The notes: a model not told the origin generated them from the sequence alone. Shown: positions 18,027 through 55,712, counted from the first letter of the stretch. The stretch is DNA of 55,712 nucleotides from an uncultured Oscillospiraceae bacterium (GCA_964537995.1 CAZICW010000001.1:1-55712), one strand, 5' to 3'. Made by a program: numbers and translations.

Positions 18027-18062
18027 AAAAAAGCAGCCGGCATAAATGCCGGCTGTTTTTTA
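18027..18062. terminator. Bidirectional intrinsic terminator (ends the THUMP gene and the nine-gene operon)
   Basis: CAGCCGGC-ATAAAT-GCCGGCTG hairpin flanked by an A-run upstream and a T-run downstream. Confidence 0.8.
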
Positions 18063-19128: not shown

Positions 19129-20056
19129 AATCCAATTTCACCACCTTCGTAAGAATAAAGAGCAGCAGCAGCAGCGCAATAATAACATTGAGCAGGAAGC
19201 ATACCGACAGCGCGCTGCCTATGCCTATCTTATTGCTTGTAAACGCGAACGAGTAGATTTCCTGCGATATGGTTGACGCAAGGAACAGGTCGACCAGCGT
19301 ATACACAAACACGAATATTGTTATGTTTCCAACCATAGGGAAGGTTATCTTCCAGAAGGTTTCGTATGTTGTGCAGCCTTCAATCTTGGCAACCTCGTAA
19401 AGCGAGGGATTGATCGACTGGAGAGCCGCAAGATAGAGCAGCGTCTGCACACCCGCTTTGGAAACTATAGTGAAGATATCACTGATTATGCCAACTATGA
19501 AAGATATAACATTTTGAGGCAGGAAGCTGTTTGTTGTGAACAGGTTCATCAGGAAGCTTGATTCCTCCGTTGCCGTGGTTGTTACGGCTGTAAGGTCACC
19601 GCCTGTGGAAACGGCCGTCATGTCGGTTACAATCGACAGACCGAGAACTATGGGGAGGAAGAAAATTACTCTGACAACTCCGCGCCCCTTATATTTTGCG
19701 TTTACAAGCAACGCGCAGAAGAGGCTGAATACGACAATCAACGGAGTGTTGACAAGAACGCTCGAGTTTTCGTCGGAAAATACGCGGATAAACTGCTGTG
19801 ACTTTGTCGAAACCTCTGTGTTGAAGAGGTCAAAATAGTTGTCCATTCCGACAAATTCCATCTCCATACCGCCGTCATCGCCTACGCTTACTTCATTAAA
19901 GGAGTATATGACGGTGTTTACAAGCGGAATCATGAAGAACAGAAGGAAGCCGATTATCCACGGAATAAGGAAAACATAGCCGTTTATTTTTTGGGTGGTG
20001 GCATATGCAAGAGGCTTCCTTGCCTTCTTAGTCTTGGTTTGGGTTTCTGCTTTCAT
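19115..20056 (-). CDS. Sugar ABC transporter permease (MalF-like TMD), second pair
   Basis: 313 aa. The EAA loop is 'EVAKIEGCTTYETFWKITFPMV'. The ATG overlaps the upstream stop (TGATG). Confidence 0.9.
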   Translation of the reverse strand: MKAETQTKTKKARKPLAYATTQKINGYVFLIPWIIGFLLFFMIPLVNTVIYSFNEVSVGDDGGMEMEFVGMDNYFDLFNTEVSTKSQQFIRVFSDENSSVLVNTPLIVVFSLFCALLVNAKYKGRGVVRVIFFLPIVLGLSIVTDMTAVSTGGDLTAVTTTATEESSFLMNLFTTNSFLPQNVISFIVGIISDIFTIVSKAGVQTLLYLAALQSINPSLYEVAKIEGCTTYETFWKITFPMVGNITIFVFVYTLVDLFLASTISQEIYSFAFTSNKIGIGSALSVCFLLNVIIALLLLLFILTKVVKLDYGTK

Positions 20057-22893
20057 CAGTTATCCCCTCCTTCTATCACAAGATAGTCCTCCGCGGCAAT
20101 TACGCCGTATTCGGTTTCTACCGGTGTGGTGTTATAGTTTGTGATTACTTTTACGCCCGTATCATAGGTCGTTTCATATACCTTATTGTCCAGAACGCTG
20201 TGGGACTTAATCTTCGTTGTGCCGATCTTCTCAAATTCTGCCTTTATTGTTGCGTACTGCTCTTTGATTTGGTCGGCGAAGATGCTGTATTCGGTTGCGA
20301 AAAGCTCGTTATAGTTCGCTTCCTTGAGTCTGTCAACGCTCTTATAGGTTATGGTATATTTGGGGAAGGAGGCAAGCTCCAATGCTTGAAGCGTGAAGTA
20401 AGCATTATCCGACGAAGAGGTGTTCACGCTGAGAGTTGTATAATCCGTAAGACCGTTAAGCACGAGCTGACGGAAGGGAACATTTTCGCGGATAAGACCG
20501 TAGTCGCTGCTTTCGCGAGAAATGTCGGCGCTTACCGCGGCATACTTAACTCTGTTCGCATTGGGATTGTAAAGGACAAGGCTTCTGCCGTCGGCAAGAG
20601 TTTCCAGAGCTGACTGAATCATAATCTCGCTCTCGTAGGGATTCCATTCATCACTGTCGCTGAGGTTCTCATAGACAAGATTTCCGAGATCTCCTATTGC
20701 CAGATTCTTATAGGTCTTGGCGCTCTCGCTGAATTTGTTAACAACATTCAGCAAATATTTGGGCGCCACCGTGTAAAAGCCCTTGCCGGTTTCATCAAAT
20801 TCGCCTGTGGGAATATTGTATTTATAGGTTTCAAGCGGGTCGCCGTTAAAGGTTATAAGCGCGTGCTTTTTCGGAGCAAAAGCGGCGGTGTCCTTATAAA
20901 CCTCGCTGGGATTAACCGAAAGGTAGAGCGAATCCCACTTGTCGCTGAGAAGCTTATCAAGAGCGGATTTGCTGCCGTTCTTGCCGACAAGCTTGGCGGA
21001 GGTGTTTATTTTATTGTAAATTCCTCCGTTAAACACGCCGCTGTAGCTTACAACCGTATCGACGTCCTTGAGATCGTCATATATTTCCGCAAGCTCGTCA
21101 TAGGTTGTCATGGAAACGGTTTTATCGTAGGGGATACCCATTACGCGGGCGTCAATCGTAAGCGCGCCTATTACATCAAGGAACATCTTCGGAGTTTCCT
21201 CAAAGGATTCCGTGAGATTGTATTCGGAGATGAGGTAATCTCTGTAGGACTGGCTCATTGTGTAATAATTCGCGTTGTCCACATAGAGTTTATAGCGCAC
21301 GCGGCAATCAAAGTCGTAGGGATTGGTTGTGGCGGTGAACTTCGCGTCACTGTCGCTGTAGGGGCCGAATACCTTAACATTGCTCACCTGCATAATATCG
21401 AAGGATGGATAAACCTTGTTGTAGGGAGCGTCGGCGTCGCTGTTTTCATCGGCGGCAAGTCTTACATTGATTGTCGCCGTCGTGTCGCCGCTTTCAATTA
21501 TGCCCATGAATCCGTTGTAAGCCGGCGTTTCCTCCGCTTCTTCCTCCGCAGTTTCGCCTTCATCGATAATTTCGGCGGCTTCTTCCTCTTCGGATTCTTC
21601 CGCTTGCGCAGTTTCATCCGAAGCTTCTTCGGCTTCCTCCGCTTCCGCGGCTTCTTCCTCCGCTTCTTCGGCTGTTTCTTCGCCTTCTTCAGCGGCTTCC
21701 GCTTCTTCCTCTTCTTCCTCTTCGGCAGACTTGAAGCTGCGGTCAGCCATACTGCCCATACCGAATACGGGCATTGTTATATTTTCGCGGAACTCGCTCT
21801 GATTATAAACCGTGTCGTAATAGGTGTTGTCGTATACGGCTCGGGAATACTCGGTGTAGCCGCTGTCATAGCTGTTGATGTCGAACAGCGCGCCGCTGCC
21901 GTCGGGAACGAATATGAAACCGTCGTCGGTTTCTTCCGCAAGCACCATTCCGAAATTCGGAAGCACTTCGATAGCCTTAATTGTAAAGTCCGCGTTTCCG
22001 GTCACGATTTCCGAAGTCGGTACGTTCACAACCAGATCGCCGTTATCAAGCGTAAAATCGGCGAAAACCGTGAAATCGGCGTCTTCGGTCACCGTAAAGG
22101 TAAAGCCGTATTCGGCACTGTCCTCACGAATAAGGTCTACATTGTATCCCACATTTTTGCTGAGGGAAATAAGTATGTTCGTCGCCGATACGGGCGGTGT
22201 GCCGGAATATTTGTTGTAATAATACTCGCCGTCGTCGGAGATTGCGTAAATCATGCCGAGAGCCTTGTCATACTGCTCCTTGGTTTCTTCGTCAATCTTT
22301 CCCGATTTAAGCAGCTCGTCAACCTTATCGACAAAGTATTCGTTATACTTTTCGGCGCTGACCTGCTTGGGCATATATTCCTCAAGGTTTGTGGAGGCTT
22401 CGCTTGTAAAGTGCATTTCCGCGCGGAAGCCGTTTTCGATTCTGGCAAGGCTGTAGCCGCGCGCCTCATCCTCTTCTTCATCTTCATCGCCGCTGTCGGC
22501 AACGCAGTAATCGTAGCCGCTCCATGTTGTCTCGGCTCCGGCGCTGTCGATGTAAGTTATTGACAAGGGGCCGGAAGCGGTGGAATCGGATTCTCCGGTG
22601 CTGCTCTGCGACTTCCAGTAGGTTTGAGTCGCCGTATCAACCACGGTTATATCCAAAGTCGAAGGATTTACATAAAGCTCCTTCCCGCCGTTTTCGGCAA
22701 CAAGCAAATCTTTGTCCGAAGTGACGTCAATTGCGCTTTTTTCGGCCGCCAATGCGCTCACTTCAACGACGGGACGGTCGGACGCCTTCATTCCAAGCTG
22801 AGGCAGCCATGATATGAAAGCAACGACCAAGCATACAACCACAATAACACACAGGATTTTCATCAGGCTAAGCTTGCTTAAAAAATTTTTCAT
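20056..22893 (-). CDS. Large N-terminally membrane-anchored exoprotein of unknown function (possibly the family annotated as DUF5696) with an internal poly-Glu/Ala tract
   Basis: 945 aa counted from ATG 22893, which has an AAAAGGTGG RBS. The ORF-track GTG is at 22905. The N-terminal anchor is 'ILCVIVVVCLVVAFISW'. I can see no catalytic motif. The DUF5696 guess rests only on size, topology and the Yip1/ABC neighbourhood. Confidence 0.75.
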   Translation of the reverse strand: MKNFLSKLSLMKILCVIVVVCLVVAFISWLPQLGMKASDRPVVEVSALAAEKSAIDVTSDKDLLVAENGGKELYVNPSTLDITVVDTATQTYWKSQSSTGESDSTASGPLSITYIDSAGAETTWSGYDYCVADSGDEDEEEDEARGYSLARIENGFRAEMHFTSEASTNLEEYMPKQVSAEKYNEYFVDKVDELLKSGKIDEETKEQYDKALGMIYAISDDGEYYYNKYSGTPPVSATNILISLSKNVGYNVDLIREDSAEYGFTFTVTEDADFTVFADFTLDNGDLVVNVPTSEIVTGNADFTIKAIEVLPNFGMVLAEETDDGFIFVPDGSGALFDINSYDSGYTEYSRAVYDNTYYDTVYNQSEFRENITMPVFGMGSMADRSFKSAEEEEEEEAEAAEEGEETAEEAEEEAAEAEEAEEASDETAQAEESEEEEAAEIIDEGETAEEEAEETPAYNGFMGIIESGDTTATINVRLAADENSDADAPYNKVYPSFDIMQVSNVKVFGPYSDSDAKFTATTNPYDFDCRVRYKLYVDNANYYTMSQSYRDYLISEYNLTESFEETPKMFLDVIGALTIDARVMGIPYDKTVSMTTYDELAEIYDDLKDVDTVVSYSGVFNGGIYNKINTSAKLVGKNGSKSALDKLLSDKWDSLYLSVNPSEVYKDTAAFAPKKHALITFNGDPLETYKYNIPTGEFDETGKGFYTVAPKYLLNVVNKFSESAKTYKNLAIGDLGNLVYENLSDSDEWNPYESEIMIQSALETLADGRSLVLYNPNANRVKYAAVSADISRESSDYGLIRENVPFRQLVLNGLTDYTTLSVNTSSSDNAYFTLQALELASFPKYTITYKSVDRLKEANYNELFATEYSIFADQIKEQYATIKAEFEKIGTTKIKSHSVLDNKVYETTYDTGVKVITNYNTTPVETEYGVIAAEDYLVIEGGDN
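21526..21729 (-). repeat. Low-complexity acidic (Glu/Ala-rich) coding tract inside the exoprotein
   Basis: About 68 codons read 'AEEEEEEEAEAAEEGEETAEEAEEEAAEAEEAEEASDETAQAEESEEEEAAEIIDEGETAEEEAEET'. The plus strand shows reiterated CTTCTTCCTC/GGCTTC units. Confidence 0.85.
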
Positions 22894-22898
22894 ATCAA

Positions 22899-23528
22899 TC
22901 ACCACCTTTTCATAAATTCGGTTCCGAAGGTATAAATGAAGGAAATAACCTTCTGGATAAGCGTAATATAGAGAATCGCAAGGAATATGATTATAATCGC
23001 CGCAATAAAGGTTGCTATAATCATAACTACGTTTGTGGCGGCTGTGTATTCATGCGCCACGCACAGACCGCAGAATACGAGGAAGGCAAAGTATACCATT
23101 CCGATGCCCGACACTGCCGTAAGGATTATTGATTCGTCAAGCGTAACAACATTGCTGAAAATAACAACGATTAAATCCAGCACCAGCTTCGGGAAAAGCG
23201 AGTATGTAACAACAACGAAAATGTCCTTGAATTTGCCGCTGCCTTCAAAAATTGCCGTTACGCTCCAGTTGCTGATGCAAAACAGAAGGAAGGGGAAAAT
23301 TCCGAAAATGAAGGTTGTCAGGCTGTTCATCGCGAACTGCGGGTTGTTGTTCATAATAAAGCCGGTATACTGATACTTGACAATTGCCAAAAGTCCGTAA
23401 AGAATAAGAATTATCGCTCCGAGAGTTACATTTTCTTTACCTCTGAATCGCACCTCATAGAAGCCATCAAACGGGTGGGTAATGACGTGCATCAGATATT
23501 TAAAATCTTCCAATAACTTTTTCATCAT
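22899..23528 (-). CDS. Yip1-family polytopic membrane protein
   Basis: About 209 aa starting at ATG 23528 or 23525 after a GAGGTGA RBS. There are five hydrophobic helices. The N-terminus 'YLMHVITHPFDGFYEVRF' resembles bacterial Yip1-domain proteins. Confidence 0.75.
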   Translation of the reverse strand: MMKKLLEDFKYLMHVITHPFDGFYEVRFRGKENVTLGAIILILYGLLAIVKYQYTGFIMNNNPQFAMNSLTTFIFGIFPFLLFCISNWSVTAIFEGSGKFKDIFVVVTYSLFPKLVLDLIVVIFSNVVTLDESIILTAVSGIGMVYFAFLVFCGLCVAHEYTAATNVVMIIATFIAAIIIIFLAILYITLIQKVISFIYTFGTEFMKRW

Positions 23529-32005: not shown

Positions 32006-32034
32006 ATTATACACAAAAACTATAAAAATATCAA
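32006..32034 (-). promoter_or_regulatory. Sigma-A-type promoter of the nine-gene operon
   Basis: On the minus strand: TTGATA (32034-32029), 17-nt spacer, TATAAT (32011-32006). It sits about 55 nt upstream of ATG 31950 and downstream of the pheT terminator. Confidence 0.5.
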
Positions 32035-38360: not shown

Positions 38361-38409
38361 TATAAATCATCTGTAAATCATACGAACTTTATGAAAGGAG
38401 TGAAGCCGC

Positions 38410-39456
38410 ATGGCTTCTGTAAGAGTCGGCATTTTCGGTGCCACGGGCTACGCCGGAATCGAAGCTGTACGTCTGCTTTCCCGTCATGAGGGCTGCGAGC
38501 TGACAATGCTTGTTTCCCAAACCTTCAAGGGTCAGAAAATCAGCGACGTTTATCAAAGCCTGAGAGGAATTTGCGATTTGGTATGCGAGGAGCTTAACGT
38601 CGAAGAAGCTGCGCGCCGCTGCGACGTCGTGTTCACGGCTCTGCCGCACGGAGCCTCGAAGGAGGTTATTCCGTCGCTTTACGACGCCGGTCTCAGAATC
38701 ATAGACCTGAGCGGAGATTTCCGATACAATGACGCCAAGGTATACGAGGAATGGTACGGTCAGCCGCACAGCGCGCCGGAGCTTTTGAAGCAGTCGGTTT
38801 ACGGTCTGTGCGAGCTGCACAGAGAGGAAATTAAAAAAACAAGGCTTGTCGGCAATCCGGGCTGCTATACGACCTGTTCCATACTGGGGCTTGCGCCGCT
38901 CGTCAAGAACGGGCTTATAGACAATTCCTCGATTATAATCGACGCAAAAAGCGGCGTAAGCGGAGCCGGACGCGGTTTGGCGCTCGATTACCACTTCTGC
39001 GAATGTACGGAAAATATGAAAGCCTATAAGCTCGGCACCCATCGGCACACAAGCGAAATCGAGCAGGAGCTCGGACTGCTTGCCGGCGAGGAAATCAGGC
39101 TCTCGTTCAGTCCTCATCTTGTTCCCATGAAGCGCGGCATTTTCGCCACCTGCTACGCAAACCTCGAAAGCGGCGCTTCTCAGGATGAGCTTGTCGAACT
39201 GTACAGGGATTTTTACCGGGACGAATATTTTGTCCGCGTATACGACAGCGGCAAGCTGCCCGAAAGCAACCATGTCGCGGGGAGCAACTTCGTTGACATC
39301 GGTCTTGTCGTTGACAAAAGGCTTAACAGGGTTATTGTTGTCAGCGCAATCGACAATCTTGTCAAGGGCGCGGCGGGGCAGGCGGTTCAGAACATGAATC
39401 TTATGTTCGGTCTGGACGAAAGATGCGGTCTGCTTCAGGCGGGACTTTATCTGTAA
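38410..39456 (+). CDS. argC: N-acetyl-gamma-glutamyl-phosphate reductase
   Basis: 348 aa. 'VGIFGATGYAGIEAVRLL' is the NAD-binding segment and 'NPGCYTT' contains the active-site Cys. Confidence 0.95.
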   Translation: MASVRVGIFGATGYAGIEAVRLLSRHEGCELTMLVSQTFKGQKISDVYQSLRGICDLVCEELNVEEAARRCDVVFTALPHGASKEVIPSLYDAGLRIIDLSGDFRYNDAKVYEEWYGQPHSAPELLKQSVYGLCELHREEIKKTRLVGNPGCYTTCSILGLAPLVKNGLIDNSSIIIDAKSGVSGAGRGLALDYHFCECTENMKAYKLGTHRHTSEIEQELGLLAGEEIRLSFSPHLVPMKRGIFATCYANLESGASQDELVELYRDFYRDEYFVRVYDSGKLPESNHVAGSNFVDIGLVVDKRLNRVIVVSAIDNLVKGAAGQAVQNMNLMFGLDERCGLLQAGLYL

Positions 39457-39468
39457 AGGAGGATCTGC

Positions 39469-40332
39469 ATGGAAGAACTGATAAAAAAAGCGGGCATATT
39501 GATTGAAGCCCTTCCCTACATACAGCAGCTCAGCGGCAAAACCATAGTCATAAAATACGGCGGCAACGCCATGGTAAGCGACGAGCTTCGCCGTTCGGTC
39601 ATGGAGGACGTGACGCTGCTGAAATTTGTCGGCGCAAATCCGATTATCGTTCACGGCGGCGGGCCCGACATTACCGACGCACTGAAGGTATATAACATTG
39701 AAAGCCGTTTCATTAACGGGCTTCGCTATACCGACGAAGCCGCAATGCAGGTCGCGCAGATGGCGCTTGTCGGCAAAACAAACAAGGCCGTGGTTTCCAC
39801 GATAAACGCCATGGGCGGCAAAGCAATCGGGCTTTGCGGAATTGACGGCTCCATTATAAAATGCAAAAAGAAAACAGTCCTTGTAGACGGAGTTGAGCAG
39901 GACTTAGGCTATGTCGGCGAAGTGACGGACGTTGACACGCACGTTATCGAGCTTATAGGCGACGACCGTTACATTCCCGTAATTGCGCCGATAGGCACTG
40001 ACGACAACGCCGTGAGCTACAATATAAACGCCGACACCGCCGCTTCCGCGGTTGCGGCGGCTCTCGGAGCGGAAAAGCTTATTTTCCTCACCGATACGGA
40101 GGGAGTAAAGGACGAGCATGGCGATATAATTTACGAAATGACAAGGAAAAAGGCGCTTTCGCTGATTGACGGCGGCACTATAAGCGGAGGAATGATTCCC
40201 AAGGTTCTCGGCTGCCTTGACGCGATAAAGGCGGGAGTAAACCGCGTGCATATTATCGACGGGCGTATACCGCACTGTCTCTTGCTTGAAATATTTACCA
40301 ACACCGGTATAGGCACGATGATTACAAAGTGA
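39469..40332 (+). CDS. argB: Acetylglutamate kinase
   Basis: 287 aa. '[10 protein letters not shown]' and '[11 protein letters not shown]' are typical amino-acid-kinase-fold ArgB motifs. Confidence 0.95.
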
Positions 40333-43877: not shown

Positions 43878-44978
43878 ATGAGAAACACAAGCATACTTTT
43901 CACCTTCATAATAGCCTTCGTCGTAACCTTCCTGCTGACGCCGTGGGTTAAAAAGCTGGCGTTCAAGGTCGGCGCGGTTGACGTTCCGAAGGACGAGCGG
44001 AGAATGCACAAAAAGCCGACGGCTCTACTCGGCGGTTTGGCGATATTCGCGGGCTTTGTCGCGGCGGCGCTTGTCTATGTGCCGATGACCAGGAGCTTTC
44101 TGGGCATTTTGGCGGGCGCGGTCATAATTGTCGTGCTTGGTTTTTTCGATGACATATACGCTCTCGGCCCGAAGCTGAAGCTGCTTGTTCAGATAATCGC
44201 GGCGCTCATTCCCGTACTCTGCGGCGTGAGAATCGACATAATAAAGGTTCCCGAATTTATAGACGCCTACGGCTACCTCGATTTGGGATATTTTTCAATT
44301 CCGCTGACCATACTTTGGATTGCGGGAGTTACAAACGCGATGAACCTGCTTGACGGTCTTGACGGACTGGCGTGCGGCGTTTCATCAATATCATCGCTGA
44401 CAATTCTCTGCATAGCTCTGCTTGTGGGCGAACCGAGCATTGCCTTTGCGACGGCGGCTCTTGCGGGGGCGTGTTTCGGCTTTTTGCCTTACAATTTCAA
44501 TCCCGCAAAGCTGTTTATGGGCGATACGGGCGCGCTTTTCCTCGGATATATGCTTGCGACGCTCTCGGTTACGGGGCTGTTCAAGGGCTATGCCGTAATA
44601 AGCATCGCCGTGCCGTTCCTCATTCTCGGACTTCCGATATTCGACACGGTTTCCGCAATGCTGCGCCGCGCCAAAAATCACCGCCCGATAATGAGTCCCG
44701 ACCGCGCGCATCTTCATCACAGACTTGTAGACGCGGGATTGAGTCAAAAGCAGGCGGTTATCGTGATTTATGCAATGTGCGCGCTGCTCTGCCTGACGGC
44801 GGTGCTGCTGATATGGACGGGAGCGGTAAGTCCGTTTGCGCTTTTGATTGTGCTTGCGGCGTTTGTGCTGTTCCTAACCTTTGTTCCGAGCTTTTCCCGT
44901 CTGTTTCAGGGCGATGACGCTGACGCGGACGAAGACGAAAAAGAGCAAAAAAAATCGAAAGGAGGCGGCGCAAGGTAA
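43878..44978 (+). CDS. tagO: Undecaprenyl-phosphate GlcNAc-1-phosphate transferase (TagO/WecA, MraY family)
   Basis: 366 aa and polytopic. 'NAMNLLDGLDGLA' and 'MGDTGALFLGYML' are MraY/WecA signature motifs. Confidence 0.85.
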   Translation: MRNTSILFTFIIAFVVTFLLTPWVKKLAFKVGAVDVPKDERRMHKKPTALLGGLAIFAGFVAAALVYVPMTRSFLGILAGAVIIVVLGFFDDIYALGPKLKLLVQIIAALIPVLCGVRIDIIKVPEFIDAYGYLDLGYFSIPLTILWIAGVTNAMNLLDGLDGLACGVSSISSLTILCIALLVGEPSIAFATAALAGACFGFLPYNFNPAKLFMGDTGALFLGYMLATLSVTGLFKGYAVISIAVPFLILGLPIFDTVSAMLRRAKNHRPIMSPDRAHLHHRLVDAGLSQKQAVIVIYAMCALLCLTAVLLIWTGAVSPFALLIVLAAFVLFLTFVPSFSRLFQGDDADADEDEKEQKKSKGGGAR

Positions 44979-44996
44979 GCTTTGCGCATCAAGTCC

Positions 44997-46136
44997 ATGA
45001 TAAAAATATTCACCGTATTCGGCACACGTCCCGAAGCCATAAAAATGGCTCCGCTTGTACATGAGCTGAGAAAACGTCCCGAGGTAAAATGTATGGTCTG
45101 CGTAACGGCGCAGCACCGTCAGATGCTGGACATGGTGCTTAACCTGTTCAAAATCACCCCGGATTTCGACCTTGACATAATGAAGGAACGCCAGACCCTT
45201 GCCGGAATAACTACCCGCGCTCTTTCGGGGCTTGAAGAAGTTTTCCGCGAGGAAAGACCCGATCTTGTTCTGGTTCACGGCGACACAACAACGACATTTT
45301 CCGGCGCGCTGGCCGCTTACTATAATCAGATAAAGGTCGGCCACGTTGAAGCGGGGCTTCGTACGGGCGACAAATATTTTCCTTTTCCCGAGGAAATGAA
45401 CAGAAAAATGACCGCCGCAATCGCCGACCTGCACTTTGCGCCGACGGTCAGCAATCGGCGTAATCTTCTGAACGAGGGCGTTCCCGCCGACAGAATCTTT
45501 GTCACGGGCAACACCGTCATCGACGCCTTTGCGACCACAATAAAGAAAGATTTTTCCTTTGCGGGAACTCCGCTTGAAAATATAGACTGGAGCAGGCGCG
45601 TTATACTTATGACAGCCCATCGCCGCGAAAATTTGGGCGAGCCGCTGCGTAACATCTGCCGCGCCGCCGCCGGTATAGTACGCTCCTTCCCCGACGTGGA
45701 GCTTGTTTATCCCGTGCATCTCAATCCTGCCGTTCAGGACGTGGCGAATGAAATTCTCGGCGGAATGCCGAGGGTTCATCTTGTTGAGCCTTTGGATGTG
45801 GACGTACTCCACAACGCCATGAGCCGTTGCTTCCTTGTAATGACCGACAGCGGCGGACTTCAGGAGGAAGCTCCGGCTCTCGGAAAGCCCGTGCTTGTGC
45901 TGCGAGGCGAAACGGAGCGTCCCGAAGCCGCCGAAGCCGGAACCGTAAAGATTGCCGGTGTCAGCGAGGAGGTCATATATTCCCTTGCGTACCAGCTTCT
46001 GACCGACGACGAGGAATATTCCCGCATGAGCCGCGCGGTAAATCCTTACGGCGACGGAAACGCCAGCCGCCGCATTGCCGACGCCATACTTTATCATTTC
46101 GGCATACGCGAGGAGCCTCCCGCCCAATGGCTGTAA
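44997..46136 (+). CDS. wecB: UDP-N-acetylglucosamine 2-epimerase (non-hydrolysing)
   Basis: About 379 aa. 'FGTRPEAIKMAPL', 'HVEAGLRT' and 'TDSGGLQEEAPALGKPVLVLR' are present. The start is ATG 44997 or TTG 44982. Confidence 0.9.
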   Translation: MIKIFTVFGTRPEAIKMAPLVHELRKRPEVKCMVCVTAQHRQMLDMVLNLFKITPDFDLDIMKERQTLAGITTRALSGLEEVFREERPDLVLVHGDTTTTFSGALAAYYNQIKVGHVEAGLRTGDKYFPFPEEMNRKMTAAIADLHFAPTVSNRRNLLNEGVPADRIFVTGNTVIDAFATTIKKDFSFAGTPLENIDWSRRVILMTAHRRENLGEPLRNICRAAAGIVRSFPDVELVYPVHLNPAVQDVANEILGGMPRVHLVEPLDVDVLHNAMSRCFLVMTDSGGLQEEAPALGKPVLVLRGETERPEAAEAGTVKIAGVSEEVIYSLAYQLLTDDEEYSRMSRAVNPYGDGNASRRIADAILYHFGIREEPPAQWL

Positions 46137-46179
46137 ATTATAGGAACCGATTTTTATGACAAATTGGCAAAATTGACTA

Positions 46180-46208
46180 TTGTAAAAGCTTTTTTGTTGC
46201 TGTATAAT
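46180..46208 (+). promoter_or_regulatory. Sigma-A promoter of the atp operon
   Basis: TTGTAA (46180-46185), 17-nt spacer, TATAAT (46203-46208). Confidence 0.5.
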
Positions 46209-46230
46209 ATCAAACAAAGGTTGGAGAATA

Positions 46231-53315: not shown

Positions 53316-55712
53316 CTAAAACGCTCGTATCGAGTTTGTGCAGACGGGCTGAATACTGCCGTCGTCAAGGAATACGAATGCCTTGACTATGACCGTTCCT
53401 TCCGCCAGTACGGCTATATCATCGAAGGTAACGCTTTCCGCAAGCGCGGCGCTTCGAACAGCAAGCAGTTCGTTGTTTCTGTAAAGCGCTACGTATGCCC
53501 TTCCGTTCACATCTTCAAGACCGGAAATGCCGAGCTTTATACTGCCTTCAATTCCGTTTGCGCCTACGCGGGTAAGGTTCGAGATGTCAATGTCGATTGC
53601 ATAGCTCTCTCCCTCGACGCCGTAATAAAAGTCGGCGATTTCGCTGAGCGCGTACTTGTATCCCGCCGCAGCGGCACGGATAAGAGTTCCGCTCGTTATT
53701 TCAATCGGTTCGGTATAAACGTCGCTCTCAAGCGTCGGAGCGGTGCCGTCGAGCGTATAGAACACCTCAAATGTCCGCTCCGCGCCTTCGCTGTCGGTAT
53801 AGTTTCCTCCGATAAGCTCGACCGCGGTTCCCGCCTTAACCACACTGTTCGACGCGACGGATGCCGTCGGAGCGTCGGCGGCTCCGTTGGTAACATTATA
53901 CTTCATAACGGTCGGAGCTAAGCCGCTCTTAACCGTTTTGACCCATACGACGCTCCTTTCATACGGAGCAAAGACCATGTTTCCGTTCTCGCCGCCGCAG
54001 GGAGTTGTAATTTCCGAAGCGGTTACCCCTGTTGATTCCGTTCCCTCGACAATCAGGAAGAAGAAGGACGCACCCTCGGTGGAGCTGGCAAAGTATATGT
54101 TCGTTCCGCCGACAGCCGCTTCGGTGGAAAGCACTGTCGCTCCGCCGACGCCCGTTATTTCGGGAATCGTTACGGTGTAATTGTTCACGGAGCTGTTGGC
54201 GTAGCCTTCCGCCGCGGCCATTATTCGGAGCATACCGTCCTCATAGAAGTAGATATAGCTTCCCGTGAACAGCTTTGTGGAGTCACTGCCGACAACTGGA
54301 ACCGAGCCGTCTGTTGTATAGTAAATCTTTGCGGGTTCGCTTTCATTGCCGAGATACAAATTGTATATCATCGAACCGTCAACATTGAGCATTGATGATG
54401 AGCTTTTTGCGTACGGCGTAGTCAAGGCGGTTAGGGTTACGGTGTATTCATAGATTTCGCTGTCGTAGTAGCCGCTGCGCACGGCAATCGCGCGAACGGT
54501 ATAGGTTCCGGCGGAGGTGAAGCTGAGCCTGTTCTCGTAAACATTGCTGTCAACCGTCGGATCGGTGCCGTCAAGCGTATAGTAAACTGTTGTGCGGGGA
54601 GTTAAATCGGTGAGCATAAGCTCCTTTCCGCCGATAACATTCGATTCTGTAAAGAGAACCTCGCCGCATTGGGAAATATCTCCTTCGCTCAAAATCTTTG
54701 TCACAACATTGCTGGCTTCATAGCCGTTGGCAACGGCAATAAACTTCAGCGTCACTCCCGAGTCCACAACCGCAAGCCCGCTCGTCGCCTGCGCGGAGCT
54801 TGTTGTGGGGGTTGTGCAGTCGGTTGTATAGTAATATTCCGCGCCGTCGGTTTCGCAGGCAAAGCGGAGAATATAGCTGCTGCCGCTCGGAACTGCCTCA
54901 ACCGTGGGTTCGGCTGTTTTGGACACATTAAGAGACTGTGTTTTATACGCGTATTCATAGCCCGGCTTCGCCGCGACAACATGGACATAGCCGCCCGTCG
55001 AAACCTCAAAGGCTCCGGTGTATTTCGTGTCCCCCGTTGTGGCCGCGGTATCCGCGTTTTTATCGATCGTATAGAACAAATCCGCATCGCTGTCGGCGCA
55101 GGAAAGCGTAACCCTGACTCCCGACGCGGTGTTTGTTTCCTTAACGGTTATTTCTCCCACCTTATCAAGCGTAATCGGCCCGCCCGTAACGGAAACCGTC
55201 GCGGCGTAGACGCTGCTGACGCTCTGTTCGCCGTTAACGGTCTTGACTGCCACGGCGGCGATATAGCCGCTGCTGCTGTATGTTATCGGATAGGTGTAAA
55301 GATTTTCGCTGCTGATTGCAATATCCGAAGCGTTCTTGATTTTTTCGGTAACATAGTATATGTCGCAGCCCTCTTCGGCGGTAAGAGTGATATATACGGC
55401 GCCGTTTTCAAGAGTTGTCTTCGCCGCCGTAACGGTTTCTGTTACCGCGACTTCAATCTTCCCTTGTTTAATATCGCTGTATTTTCCTTCCGCGTAAGCG
55501 CGAAAGACTATATAGTACGTTCCTGTTTTGTCAAAAACTATGGGCTGAGTATAAAGCGTTCCCGTGCTTACGGTCAGGTCGTAGGACGAGGGTATGGATT
55601 CAAACATCATATAATATATGTCCGCGCCGTCGGAGGATTTAAGCGTCAGGGTTTTCGCGCCGTTCGCGGCTGTTTCGGTGCTTGAGGTCGGAACGCTCAG
55701 CGTGACCGTACT
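53316..55712 (-). CDS. Large repetitive surface protein with tandem chitobiase/beta-hexosaminidase-C-terminal-like (Fn3-associated) modules; 5' end lies outside the window
   Basis: The frame stays open from 55610 to the window edge (34 further sense codons). At least 8 modules have the signature '[IVF][YF]YT.DG..P......Y...[IF]......[IV].A.A...GY..S'. Confidence 0.8.
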   Translation of the reverse strand, partial: STVTLSVPTSSTETAANGAKTLTLKSSDGADIYYMMFESIPSSYDLTVSTGTLYTQPIVFDKTGTYYIVFRAYAEGKYSDIKQGKIEVAVTETVTAAKTTLENGAVYITLTAEEGCDIYYVTEKIKNASDIAISSENLYTYPITYSSSGYIAAVAVKTVNGEQSVSSVYAATVSVTGGPITLDKVGEITVKETNTASGVRVTLSCADSDADLFYTIDKNADTAATTGDTKYTGAFEVSTGGYVHVVAAKPGYEYAYKTQSLNVSKTAEPTVEAVPSGSSYILRFACETDGAEYYYTTDCTTPTTSSAQATSGLAVVDSGVTLKFIAVANGYEASNVVTKILSEGDISQCGEVLFTESNVIGGKELMLTDLTPRTTVYYTLDGTDPTVDSNVYENRLSFTSAGTYTVRAIAVRSGYYDSEIYEYTVTLTALTTPYAKSSSSMLNVDGSMIYNLYLGNESEPAKIYYTTDGSVPVVGSDSTKLFTGSYIYFYEDGMLRIMAAAEGYANSSVNNYTVTIPEITGVGGATVLSTEAAVGGTNIYFASSTEGASFFFLIVEGTESTGVTASEITTPCGGENGNMVFAPYERSVVWVKTVKSGLAPTVMKYNVTNGAADAPTASVASNSVVKAGTAVELIGGNYTDSEGAERTFEVFYTLDGTAPTLESDVYTEPIEITSGTLIRAAAAGYKYALSEIADFYYGVEGESYAIDIDISNLTRVGANGIEGSIKLGISGLEDVNGRAYVALYRNNELLAVRSAALAESVTFDDIAVLAEGTVIVKAFVFLDDGSIQPVCTNSIRAF
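53622..55712 (-). repeat. Tandem array of ~75-90-aa Ig-like protein modules (diverged at DNA level)
   Basis: Module starts include 'ADIYYMM', 'CDIYYVT', 'ADLFYTID', 'AEYYYTTD', 'TVYYTLDG', 'AKIYYTTDG' and 'FEVFYTLDG', each followed by an 'A.A...GY' strand. Confidence 0.7.

Follow-up and report, generated by a model that had tools for sequence, protein, structure and literature searches.

A membrane-anchored DUF5696 protein with a GH129/GH101-like glycosidase fold as an enzyme-like component of a conserved nine-gene ABC import cassette

Gene structure and domain layout of the DUF5696 protein

The DNA analysed in this study (CAZICW010000001.1:1-55712 of an uncultured Oscillospiraceae bacterium, 55,712 nucleotides, referred to as the window) harbors nine closely spaced genes of the same orientation (31956 to 18085), of which the seventh encodes a 945 amino acid (aa) protein of the Pfam family DUF5696. 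The gene products are two substrate-binding proteins (SBPs) and four permeases of ATP-binding cassette (ABC) importers, an NHL/TPR protein, a Yip1 protein and the DUF5696 protein, which is in line with an earlier note on this DNA, according to which the operon otherwise lacks an enzyme. The DUF5696 protein is an enzyme-like component of this conserved nine-gene cassette, and within the GH129/GH101-like glycosidase superfold (GH, glycoside hydrolase family), its family forms a divergent branch. The coordinates of all features are compiled in Table 1.

The open reading frame (ORF) of about 945 aa proposed earlier for positions 20056-22893 was confirmed, though its strand (minus) had been left unstated. 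It extends from the ATG at 22893 to the TGA at 20058-20056. In the mechanical ORF list a GTG at 22905 serves as start; since this codon falls within the Shine-Dalgarno-like AAAGGTGGTGA, the ATG at 22893 is the likely start. Translational coupling on both sides, as previously claimed, was found as well: only 5 nt separate the stop codon of the upstream Yip1 ORF (TGA, 22901-22899) from the ATG, and the stop codon of the DUF5696 gene overlaps the ATG of the following permease gene in the sequence TGATG at 20056, which is preceded by GAAGGAGGGG. The comparison with the DUF5696 model suggested in the note resulted in a match with an E-value of 1.2e-124 and 417.5 bits (gathering threshold, 25.6 bits), and 70 homologues were collected; hence, the ORF is a genuine gene rather than a chance ORF. 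No database entry is identical to the exact sequence of the 945-aa protein. An ORF of 566 aa on the plus strand (20863-22563), antisense to the DUF5696 gene, was rejected as a gene and regarded as a shadow ORF because of the strong AT skew (-0.20) of the region.

The only hydrophobic segment of the protein according to Kyte-Doolittle analysis comprises residues 9-27, and neither a lipobox nor an LPXTG motif was found when the sequence was scanned, which bears out the earlier description of an extracytoplasmic protein with a single N-terminal anchor. The lysine-rich N-terminal tail suggests a signal anchor of the N-in/C-out (type II) orientation. Of 214 family members, 206 have a hydrophobic segment at the N-terminus. 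The ectodomain has an isoelectric point (pI) of 4.1. Within the protein, the string ILCVIVVVCLVVAFISW corresponds to residues 13-29, IFVPDGSGALFD to residues 327-338 and ENVPFRQLVLNGLTDYT to residues 803-819.

A structure was predicted with AlphaFold2 (AF2) on an alignment of the protein with its 70 homologues (19-79% sequence identity, alignment A1), and the domain limits were taken from the DSSP assignment of this model, for which a predicted local distance difference test (pLDDT) value of 84.6 and a predicted template modelling score (pTM) of 0.82 were obtained. An enlarged N-terminal beta-sandwich (N-domain), carrying a helical insert at about residues 180-262, is connected via a linker helix (residues 543-558) to a (beta/alpha)8 barrel, which is followed by a C-terminal beta-sandwich. 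The impression of a (beta/alpha)8 glycosidase-like fold given in the earlier note was thus right, and the structure prediction and fold search it had proposed revealed a glycosidase architecture and not Ig-like repeats only. One of the segments on which this impression was based, IFVPDGSGALFD, lies outside the barrel, forming a hairpin of the N-terminal beta-sandwich in the AF2 model.

The N-domain is interrupted by a poly-Glu/Ala stretch, which had gone unmentioned before. It directly follows the conserved MPVFG strand, and pLDDT values below 50 were found within it at residues 413-454. The insertion site is variable throughout the family; inserts of 7 to 271 residues, often poly-acidic, are found in both sequence classes described below.

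Table 1. Position of the features of the DUF5696 gene and of its operon in the window (TM, transmembrane; CUT1, carbohydrate uptake transporter 1)
Feature	Position	Strand	Basis
DUF5696 gene, 945 aa	20056..22893	-	ORF and translation; Pfam PF18952; AF2 model
N-terminal signal-anchor/TM helix, residues 9-29, SLMKILCVIVVVCLVVAFISW	22807..22869	-	Kyte-Doolittle peak 2.99
Enlarged N-terminal beta-sandwich, approx. residues 50-540	21274..22746	-	DSSP; aligns with DagB N-domain 35-299
PDGSG hairpin loop, residues 330-334, N-domain	21892..21906	-	near-invariant D331
Poly-Glu/Ala disordered insert, 74 residues (385-458)	21520..21741	-	37 Glu in 74 residues
(beta/alpha)8 barrel, approx. residues 565-865	20299..21201	-	strand/helix alternation; Foldseek; hhalign to DagB TIM barrel
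D735 (LAIGD), candidate catalytic nucleophile	20689..20691	-	pairs with DagB D486, hhalign A1 vs A2
D790 and SRESSDYG loop (792-799), candidate acid/base and substrate-contact loop	20497..20526	-	conservation; position after beta6
N824, invariant Asn just past beta7	20422..20424	-	214/214 sequences
C-terminal beta-sandwich, approx. residues 893-945	20059..20217	-	DSSP; conserved H898, Y910, N919
Promoter-like site, TTGATA-17-TATAAT	32006..32034	-	11/12; upstream of first gene; consensus match only
SBP lipoprotein of maltose-binding protein (MBP) fold with C-terminal Ig-like domains, 702 aa	29848..31956	-	LTGC lipobox; AF2 pLDDT 89.9
TM-anchored protein with CUT1-type sugar SBP domain, 1001 aa	26842..29847	-	SBP_bac_1 E 2e-22
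ABC importer permease pair 1, 312 aa and 296 aa	25013..26845	-	Pfam BPD_transp_1; EAA loops
NHL beta-propeller and TPR protein, signal peptide, C-terminal TM, 489 aa	23539..25008	-	Pfam NHL; PDB NHL/TPR matches
Yip1-domain polytopic membrane protein, 211 aa	22899..23534	-	Pfam Yip1 E 1.4e-15; directly upstream of DUF5696
ABC importer permease pair 2, 313 aa and 347 aa	18085..20056	-	BPD_transp_1; coupled to DUF5696 by TGATG
Bidirectional intrinsic-terminator-like hairpin	18028..18061	.	after last permease

Relationship to GH129-like glycosidases

The match to the DUF5696 model covers model positions of about 1-612 in two stretches with the acidic insert in between. A search against NCBIfam gave no match, and no paper was found in literature searches for DUF5696 or PF18952. 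The family profile matches 6,252 clusters at 50% identity (E <= 1e-3). Homologues of 1200-2267 aa were considered as potential permease or carbohydrate-binding module (CBM) fusions; this was rejected, as they contain neither additional Pfam domains nor additional TM clusters.

In a Foldseek search of the AF2 model against the PDB, the best match was DagB (ZgGH129, ZGAL_3152) of Zobellia galactanivorans (5opq; E 6.9e-25, TM-score of 0.67 on the target), with E-values of 7e-25 to 1e-23 and TM-scores of 0.65-0.67 on the target for both DagB entries (5opq and 8rzk). The second match was NagBb, an alpha-N-acetylgalactosaminidase of GH129 from Bifidobacterium bifidum (5wzn; E 2e-18, TM-score of 0.70 on the target), followed at lower ranks by GH101, GH36 (TmGalA), GH31, GH97 and GH13 barrels. 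A plain sequence search of the DUF5696 protein against the PDB gave no match, and the GH129 entries were reached by the family profile only: the A1 profile matched DagB with an E-value of 1e-5 and NagBb with 9e-4, in both cases co-linear across N-terminal, middle and C-terminal segments. For a second alignment (A2), DagB orthologues were taken from genome contigs; the ortholog from Zobellia uliginosa (contig L006, 1649-3730) keeps the published numbering of D202, D486, E517 and E531. The comparison of A1 with A2 by hhalign resulted in a probability of 99.6% (E 1.2e-23, 609 columns), that of the 214-sequence profile with DagB in 99.9% (E 6e-35). The C-terminal beta-sandwich is included in this relationship, with its profile aligned to DagB residues 600-675 including H630.

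The Z. uliginosa DagB ortholog itself reaches 40.2 bits on the DUF5696 model, which is above the threshold of 25.6 bits, and 21.2 bits on the Pfam model Glyco_hydro_129, which is below the threshold of that model (25.6 bits). DUF5696 therefore already includes a solved and characterised glycosidase, and the label "unknown function" is partly an annotation lag. Homology of the DUF5696 protein described here to GH129-like enzymes is very highly probable. The earlier statement that no GH relatives can be recognised does not hold, since the protein is a remote, confident homologue of DagB and NagBb; as the note had named a confident match to a characterised family as an argument against its own proposal, this homology was counted in part against it. 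The protein is not a NagBb-type GH129 by the sequence models used; lacking the residues that define DagB, it is not an orthologue of that enzyme either. No match to the Pfam model Glyco_hydro_101 was obtained.

The three-domain architecture is common to DagB and the DUF5696 protein, as are the MP..G motif (M374, P375, G378), P806, H898, N919 and, if D735 indeed corresponds to D486, an Asp just past beta4; the identity over the aligned columns is approximately 16%. DagB is a soluble, periplasmic dimer encoded in a polysaccharide utilization locus (PUL) of Bacteroidetes, whereas the DUF5696 protein is TM-anchored and encoded in an ABC operon of Clostridia. Its N-domain is about 250 residues larger than that of DagB and carries the poly-Glu loop, and the PDGSG motif is replaced by IPQKQG at the corresponding place in DagB. 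NagBb has the three-domain fold with the central barrel in common with the DUF5696 protein. A fold likeness to the GH101 endo-alpha-N-acetylgalactosaminidases (EngBF, SpGH101) was detected with E-values of 1e-13 to 1e-11 and TM-scores of 0.24-0.29 on the target; the latter are larger multi-domain proteins, and neither they nor NagBb have a comparable tie to ABC operons. The combination of an N-terminal beta-sandwich with a (beta/alpha)8 barrel is also found in clan GH-D (GH36 TmGalA, GH31) and in GH97, where the structural scores are weaker (E 1e-11 to 1e-5, TM-scores of 0.34-0.60) and no sequence similarity is detectable. In these enzymes the nucleophile is located after beta4 and the acid/base after beta6.

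Conserved residues and candidate active site

DagB is an exo-alpha-1,3-(3,6-anhydro)-D-galactosidase in which an N-terminal beta-sandwich (residues 35-299) is followed by a TIM barrel (300-620) and then by an Ig-like domain at the C-terminus (PMC5698469). Mutants in D486, E517, E531 and D202 are each inactive, and D202 is located in the N-domain of the partner monomer, so that N-domain residues are part of the active site (PMC5698469). Ligand contacts are formed by C198, K208, N218, H347, W455, L536 and Q566, of which those at 198-218 are in the N-domain, and only the nucleophile is common to DagB (D486) and NagBb (D435) (PMC5698469).

In the alignment of A1 with A2, D735 of the DUF5696 protein is paired with the DagB nucleophile. 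This residue is located two residues past the predicted strand beta4 (730-733 in the AF2 model), and its distance from the conserved PK[FY] motif (P711 in the DUF5696 protein, P460 in DagB) equals that of D486 to within two residues. In the 214-sequence alignment this stretch is shifted at low confidence, and a role of D735 as nucleophile is regarded as likely rather than settled. Several other conserved positions were found in the vicinity of DagB active-site residues. R793 is paired with the ligand contact L536 at low confidence, with E794 and S795 in the same region; N824 is paired with N570, a neighbor of the ligand contact Q566, at low to medium confidence; and E370 (149/214 sequences) pairs two residues from N218, also at low to medium confidence. 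D360, which is paired with DagB D202 at low confidence, is not conserved in the DUF5696 family. Since the conserved motifs pair with active-site segments of DagB, they would fall, as far as the alignment can be trusted, on the segments forming the DagB active-site crevasse.

Among the 51 and 214 sequences compared, S795 was found in 51/51 and 198/214, S796 in 198 of the 214 and D331, the sole near-invariant acid of the family, in 51/51 and 213/214; the two glycines of the PDGSG hairpin, G332 and G334, are invariant (214 each). Further conserved residues are P806 (214), G814 (213), N919 (209), E839 (207) and H898 (205), while an acidic residue is present at position 573 in 194 and at position 794 (Asp or Glu) in 155 of the sequences. 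The conserved D/E573, N622, D735, N776, D790, S795/S796 and N824 are each located past a predicted strand of the barrel. The mapping of conserved acidic residues proposed in the earlier note thus did not reveal a universally conserved carboxylate in the barrel, the near-universal acid D331 being located in the N-domain.

Two mutually exclusive sequence classes were distinguished, neither of which carries the full catalytic set of DagB. In class I (69 sequences including the protein described here), D735 is present in 65, R793 in 66, E794 in 60, N813 and K845 in 66 and D790 in 49 sequences. Class II (134 sequences) is characterized by T/S735 (98/134), D743 (127), D357 (132), D/E775 (86), H813 and Y845. 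An Asp is missing at both 735 and 743 in just seven of the 214 sequences. With D735, R793-E794-S795-S796, N813, N824, K845, the TM anchor and PDGSG, the protein carries the complete class-I signature, the residues of which occur in 60 to 69 of the 69 class-I sequences, and by these residues it is a clear class-I member of DUF5696. The distribution of acids over the two classes looks less like decay than like acidic groups having moved around a single pocket, and it echoes the relation of DagB to NagBb. The most plausible catalytic dyad would be D735 after beta4 together with either D790, directly after beta6, or E794 in the beta6 loop. The spacing between D735 and D790/E794 (55-59 residues) is presumably comparable to that of the beta4-beta6 dyad of GH36.

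Genomic context and conservation of the cassette

The operon starts with the gene of a 702-aa lipoprotein, the database version of which begins two codons later. It did not match any SBP model of Pfam (four of 30 homologues match SBP_bac_1), and a profile search against PDB sequences gave nothing informative; Foldseek retrieved MBP and sugar SBPs. The MBP fold and the Ig-like domains ruled out that a hidden enzyme is encoded by this gene. With the lipoprotein as an MBP-type SBP, the operon therefore comprises two binding proteins and two permease pairs. The second binding protein (1001 aa, TM segment 17-35) is most similar to Lin1841 (5ysb, E 6.6e-17) among the PDB entries. Its N-terminal region of approximately 550 aa (about residues 36-570) showed weak CBM35/Golvesin_C-like matches (E 3e-4 to 1e-3). 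EAA or EAA-like loops are present in all four permeases, and with an SBP_bac_1-type binding protein and two BPD_transp_1 permeases with EAA loops, the operon contains the components of a CUT1-type ABC sugar importer. The NHL/TPR protein has TM segments at residues 8-26 and 457-475. The Yip1 protein matched the NCBIfam model YknW_fam weakly (E 0.004).

The neighbors of the operon are housekeeping genes, namely pheST at one end and genes for a THUMP/RlmL-type methyltransferase and a MATE protein at the other. The window also harbors a SpoIVA gene, and the homologues of the DUF5696 protein that carry a name derive from metagenome-assembled genomes (MAGs) of Clostridia; judged by its gene content, the source organism is a spore-forming, Clostridia-like bacterium. 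Unrelated to the operon, a 764-aa protein with three to four CHB_HEX_C_1/Fn3_assoc repeats, possibly a surface protein, is encoded at 53316-55610 on the minus strand. Two further minus-strand ORFs of 421 aa (38389-39654) and 447 aa (44874-46217) did not match any Pfam model. Each overlaps an ORF on the plus strand, and the second one overlaps the end of a GT4 gene; either of them may be a shadow ORF or a gene that has escaped annotation.

The gene order NHL-Yip1-DUF5696-permease-permease was found in 13 of 13 other loci examined, among them loci from Lachnospiraceae and Ruminococcus MAGs. Seven of these loci are 22 kb long, and the large SBP and the first permease pair are also encoded upstream in all of them, with the length of the approximately 550-aa extension of the SBP conserved; the remaining six, all from Lachnospiraceae, have flanks of 2.5 kb and show the shorter order only. 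The identity of the DUF5696 proteins decreases to 22-30% among these loci, and the flanking contexts are unrelated. The permeases are better conserved (44-55% identity for pair 1 where DUF5696 has 22-30%), and the faster divergence of DUF5696 would fit a surface component that determines specificity. In other genomes, the cassette is located next to genes for GH30_2, GH35 and GH127 (L002), GH35, ROK and LacI proteins (L046), GH3 and AraC proteins (L045) or a GH78-like protein (L047). These neighbors point to carbohydrate use without a single common substrate.

The NHL propeller and Yip1 form a single protein of 710 aa in L047 (7805-9937), and Yip1 and DUF5696 are fused in a predicted protein of 1032 aa (P0079), the Yip1 part of which is 49.5% identical to Yip1 encoded in the window. 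The topologies of both fusions agree, with the NHL part outside, a TM segment, Yip1 running from the inside to the outside and the DUF5696 ectodomain. These fusions suggest that NHL, Yip1 and DUF5696 probably belong to one membrane complex. In a Ruminococcus locus (L004, 1099-2713), two genes for ABC ATPases (225 and 314 aa) are located directly upstream of the cassette, which may serve the cassette or a nearby FtsX/YknX-type system. A local ATPase is absent from all other loci and from the window. A description of the cassette was not found in literature searches.

CUT1-type SBPs together with MalF/MalG-type permeases and without a local ATPase are also known from CUT1 glycan loci of Gram-positive bacteria, and in B. 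subtilis a Yip1-type protein (YknW) is a subunit of an ABC system (YknWXYZ), similar to Yip1 in the ABC operon described here. Different from known CUT1 loci are the two permease pairs, the one or two oversized, anchored SBPs, the NHL/TPR and Yip1 proteins, the tethered GH-like protein and the fixed order of the genes.

Discussion

The homology to glycosidases and the constant position in the cassette indicate that the DUF5696 protein is probably an enzyme preparing carbohydrates for import, and we lean, with limited confidence, towards an active, alpha-glycosidase-like surface enzyme coupled to ABC import. A specificity for alpha-linkages is suggested since all fold neighbors act on such linkages. 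A glycan or oligosaccharide might be captured at the cell surface, e.g. by the extended 1001-aa SBP, and the tethered ectodomain of the DUF5696 protein would then cleave an (alpha-)glycosidic bond, with the reaction taking place at the C-terminal face of the barrel. D735 would act as nucleophile and D790 or E794 as acid/base, while the loops of the N-domain with PDGSG (D331) and E370 would line the site in the way the N-domain residues do in DagB. The products would be imported by the two adjacent ABC importers with the help of an ATPase encoded elsewhere. The suggestion of the earlier note that the protein is a novel depolymerase or a substrate-handling component is supported insofar as no other product of the operon resembles a glycoside hydrolase. 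Support for a "novel depolymerase" was not obtained; among characterised enzymes, the nearest relatives are alpha-glycosidases of the exo-acting type, and a depolymerase is therefore not the default expectation.

Several observations weigh against an active enzyme of this type. Over the whole family, position 735 is an Asp in only 92 of 214 sequences, with Thr or Ser in class II, and the alignment of the 214 sequences places DagB D483/D486 near N743/S745, although with a confidence of 1-2 out of 9. In the DUF5696 protein, the acid/base E517 of DagB is paired with Y775, E531 with A789 and H556 with N813, the ligand contacts C198, K208, N218, H347, W455 and L536 are paired with Y, Q, F, I, F and R, respectively, and no residue is paired with Q566; neither these residues nor D202 are kept. 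The near-invariant D331 is paired at high confidence with Q179, i.e. it has no acidic counterpart in DagB. The Pfam model Glyco_hydro_129 (PF11308) does not match the protein even at E <= 10, the window contains no other glycoside hydrolase, regulator or ABC ATPase and gives no hint at the substrate, and neither a published function nor experimental data were found in the literature for the membrane-anchored clade of DUF5696. The loss of the DagB acid/base and of most ligand contacts would be explained if the glycosidase fold were non-catalytic, the ectodomain having given up hydrolase activity or never having possessed it. The protein could then be a glycan receptor or "lid" tethered to the membrane and passing the substrate on to SBPs and permeases, or a structural subunit of the NHL-Yip1-transporter complex. 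The variability of positions 735 and 794 in a barrel without a universal carboxylate, the prevalence of Gly, Pro, Ser and Asn among the invariant residues and the position of DUF5696 always among transporter subunits, at times fused to Yip1, are in accordance with such a role. It is nevertheless considered rather unlikely, as the acids are strongly conserved within each class (D735 and E794 in class I, D743 and D357 in class II), the conserved polar residues cluster past the barrel strands on the canonical catalytic face, and DagB and NagBb are both active with only the nucleophile in common.

The conservation of D331, G332 and G334, together with the occurrence of E370 two residues from the position of DagB N218, might also point to a different chemistry or active center, i.e. 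a transglycosylase or a hydrolase in which D331 (with E370) provides the acid at the interface of N-domain and barrel. That DagB depends for its activity on D202, contributed by the partner monomer's N-domain, and that N-domain residues 198-218 of DagB contact ligand mimics would fit this assumption; no characterised GH of this fold is known to have its nucleophile or acid/base in the N-domain, though, and the active enzyme DagB has a Gln in place of D331, so that this explanation appears improbable. A surface adhesin or a structural protein associated with the cell wall, without any role in transport, was taken into account in view of the large, acidic, membrane-anchored exoprotein (ectodomain pI 4.1) and of the long homologues, in which about 1000 additional residues have no Pfam match. 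The beta-sandwich/TIM barrel/beta-sandwich enzyme architecture, which is neither repeat-like nor Ig-only, the strict synteny of the gene with those of ABC permeases, to which it is also translationally coupled, and the absence of a sortase motif and of cell-wall-binding modules make this hardly credible, and the adhesin or Ig-repeat assignment was rejected on the basis of fold and context.

Compared with its relatives, the DUF5696 protein stands out by its TM anchor, by an enlarged N-domain bearing the invariant PDGSG hairpin, by an acidic insert that recurs in the family and is predicted to be disordered, and by its obligatory place in a fixed cassette together with two transporters, NHL and Yip1. 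As a speculation, which we consider rather doubtful as a whole, the cassette could encode one "glycan-processing importer" supercomplex on the surface of Gram-positive bacteria, in which Yip1 would scaffold the GH129-like enzyme and the beta-propeller onto two ABC translocators. Such a complex would be functionally analogous to the Sus system or utilisome of Bacteroidetes, built from unrelated parts, and the two family classes would reflect migrated active-site acids (D735/E794 versus D743/D357/D775).

Through the link to GH129-like enzymes, an annotation that can be tested becomes available for thousands of genes of "unknown" function in Lachnospiraceae and in MAGs of Clostridia, some of which are named from horse faeces and red deer. 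The link also points to the likely enzyme of a two-transporter cassette that is very conserved. If the DUF5696 protein is non-catalytic, a glycosidase fold would have been recruited as a transporter accessory. If the NHL-Yip1-DUF5696-permease module is indeed one machine, it would represent a new way of coupling glycan cleavage to uptake in Gram-positive bacteria.

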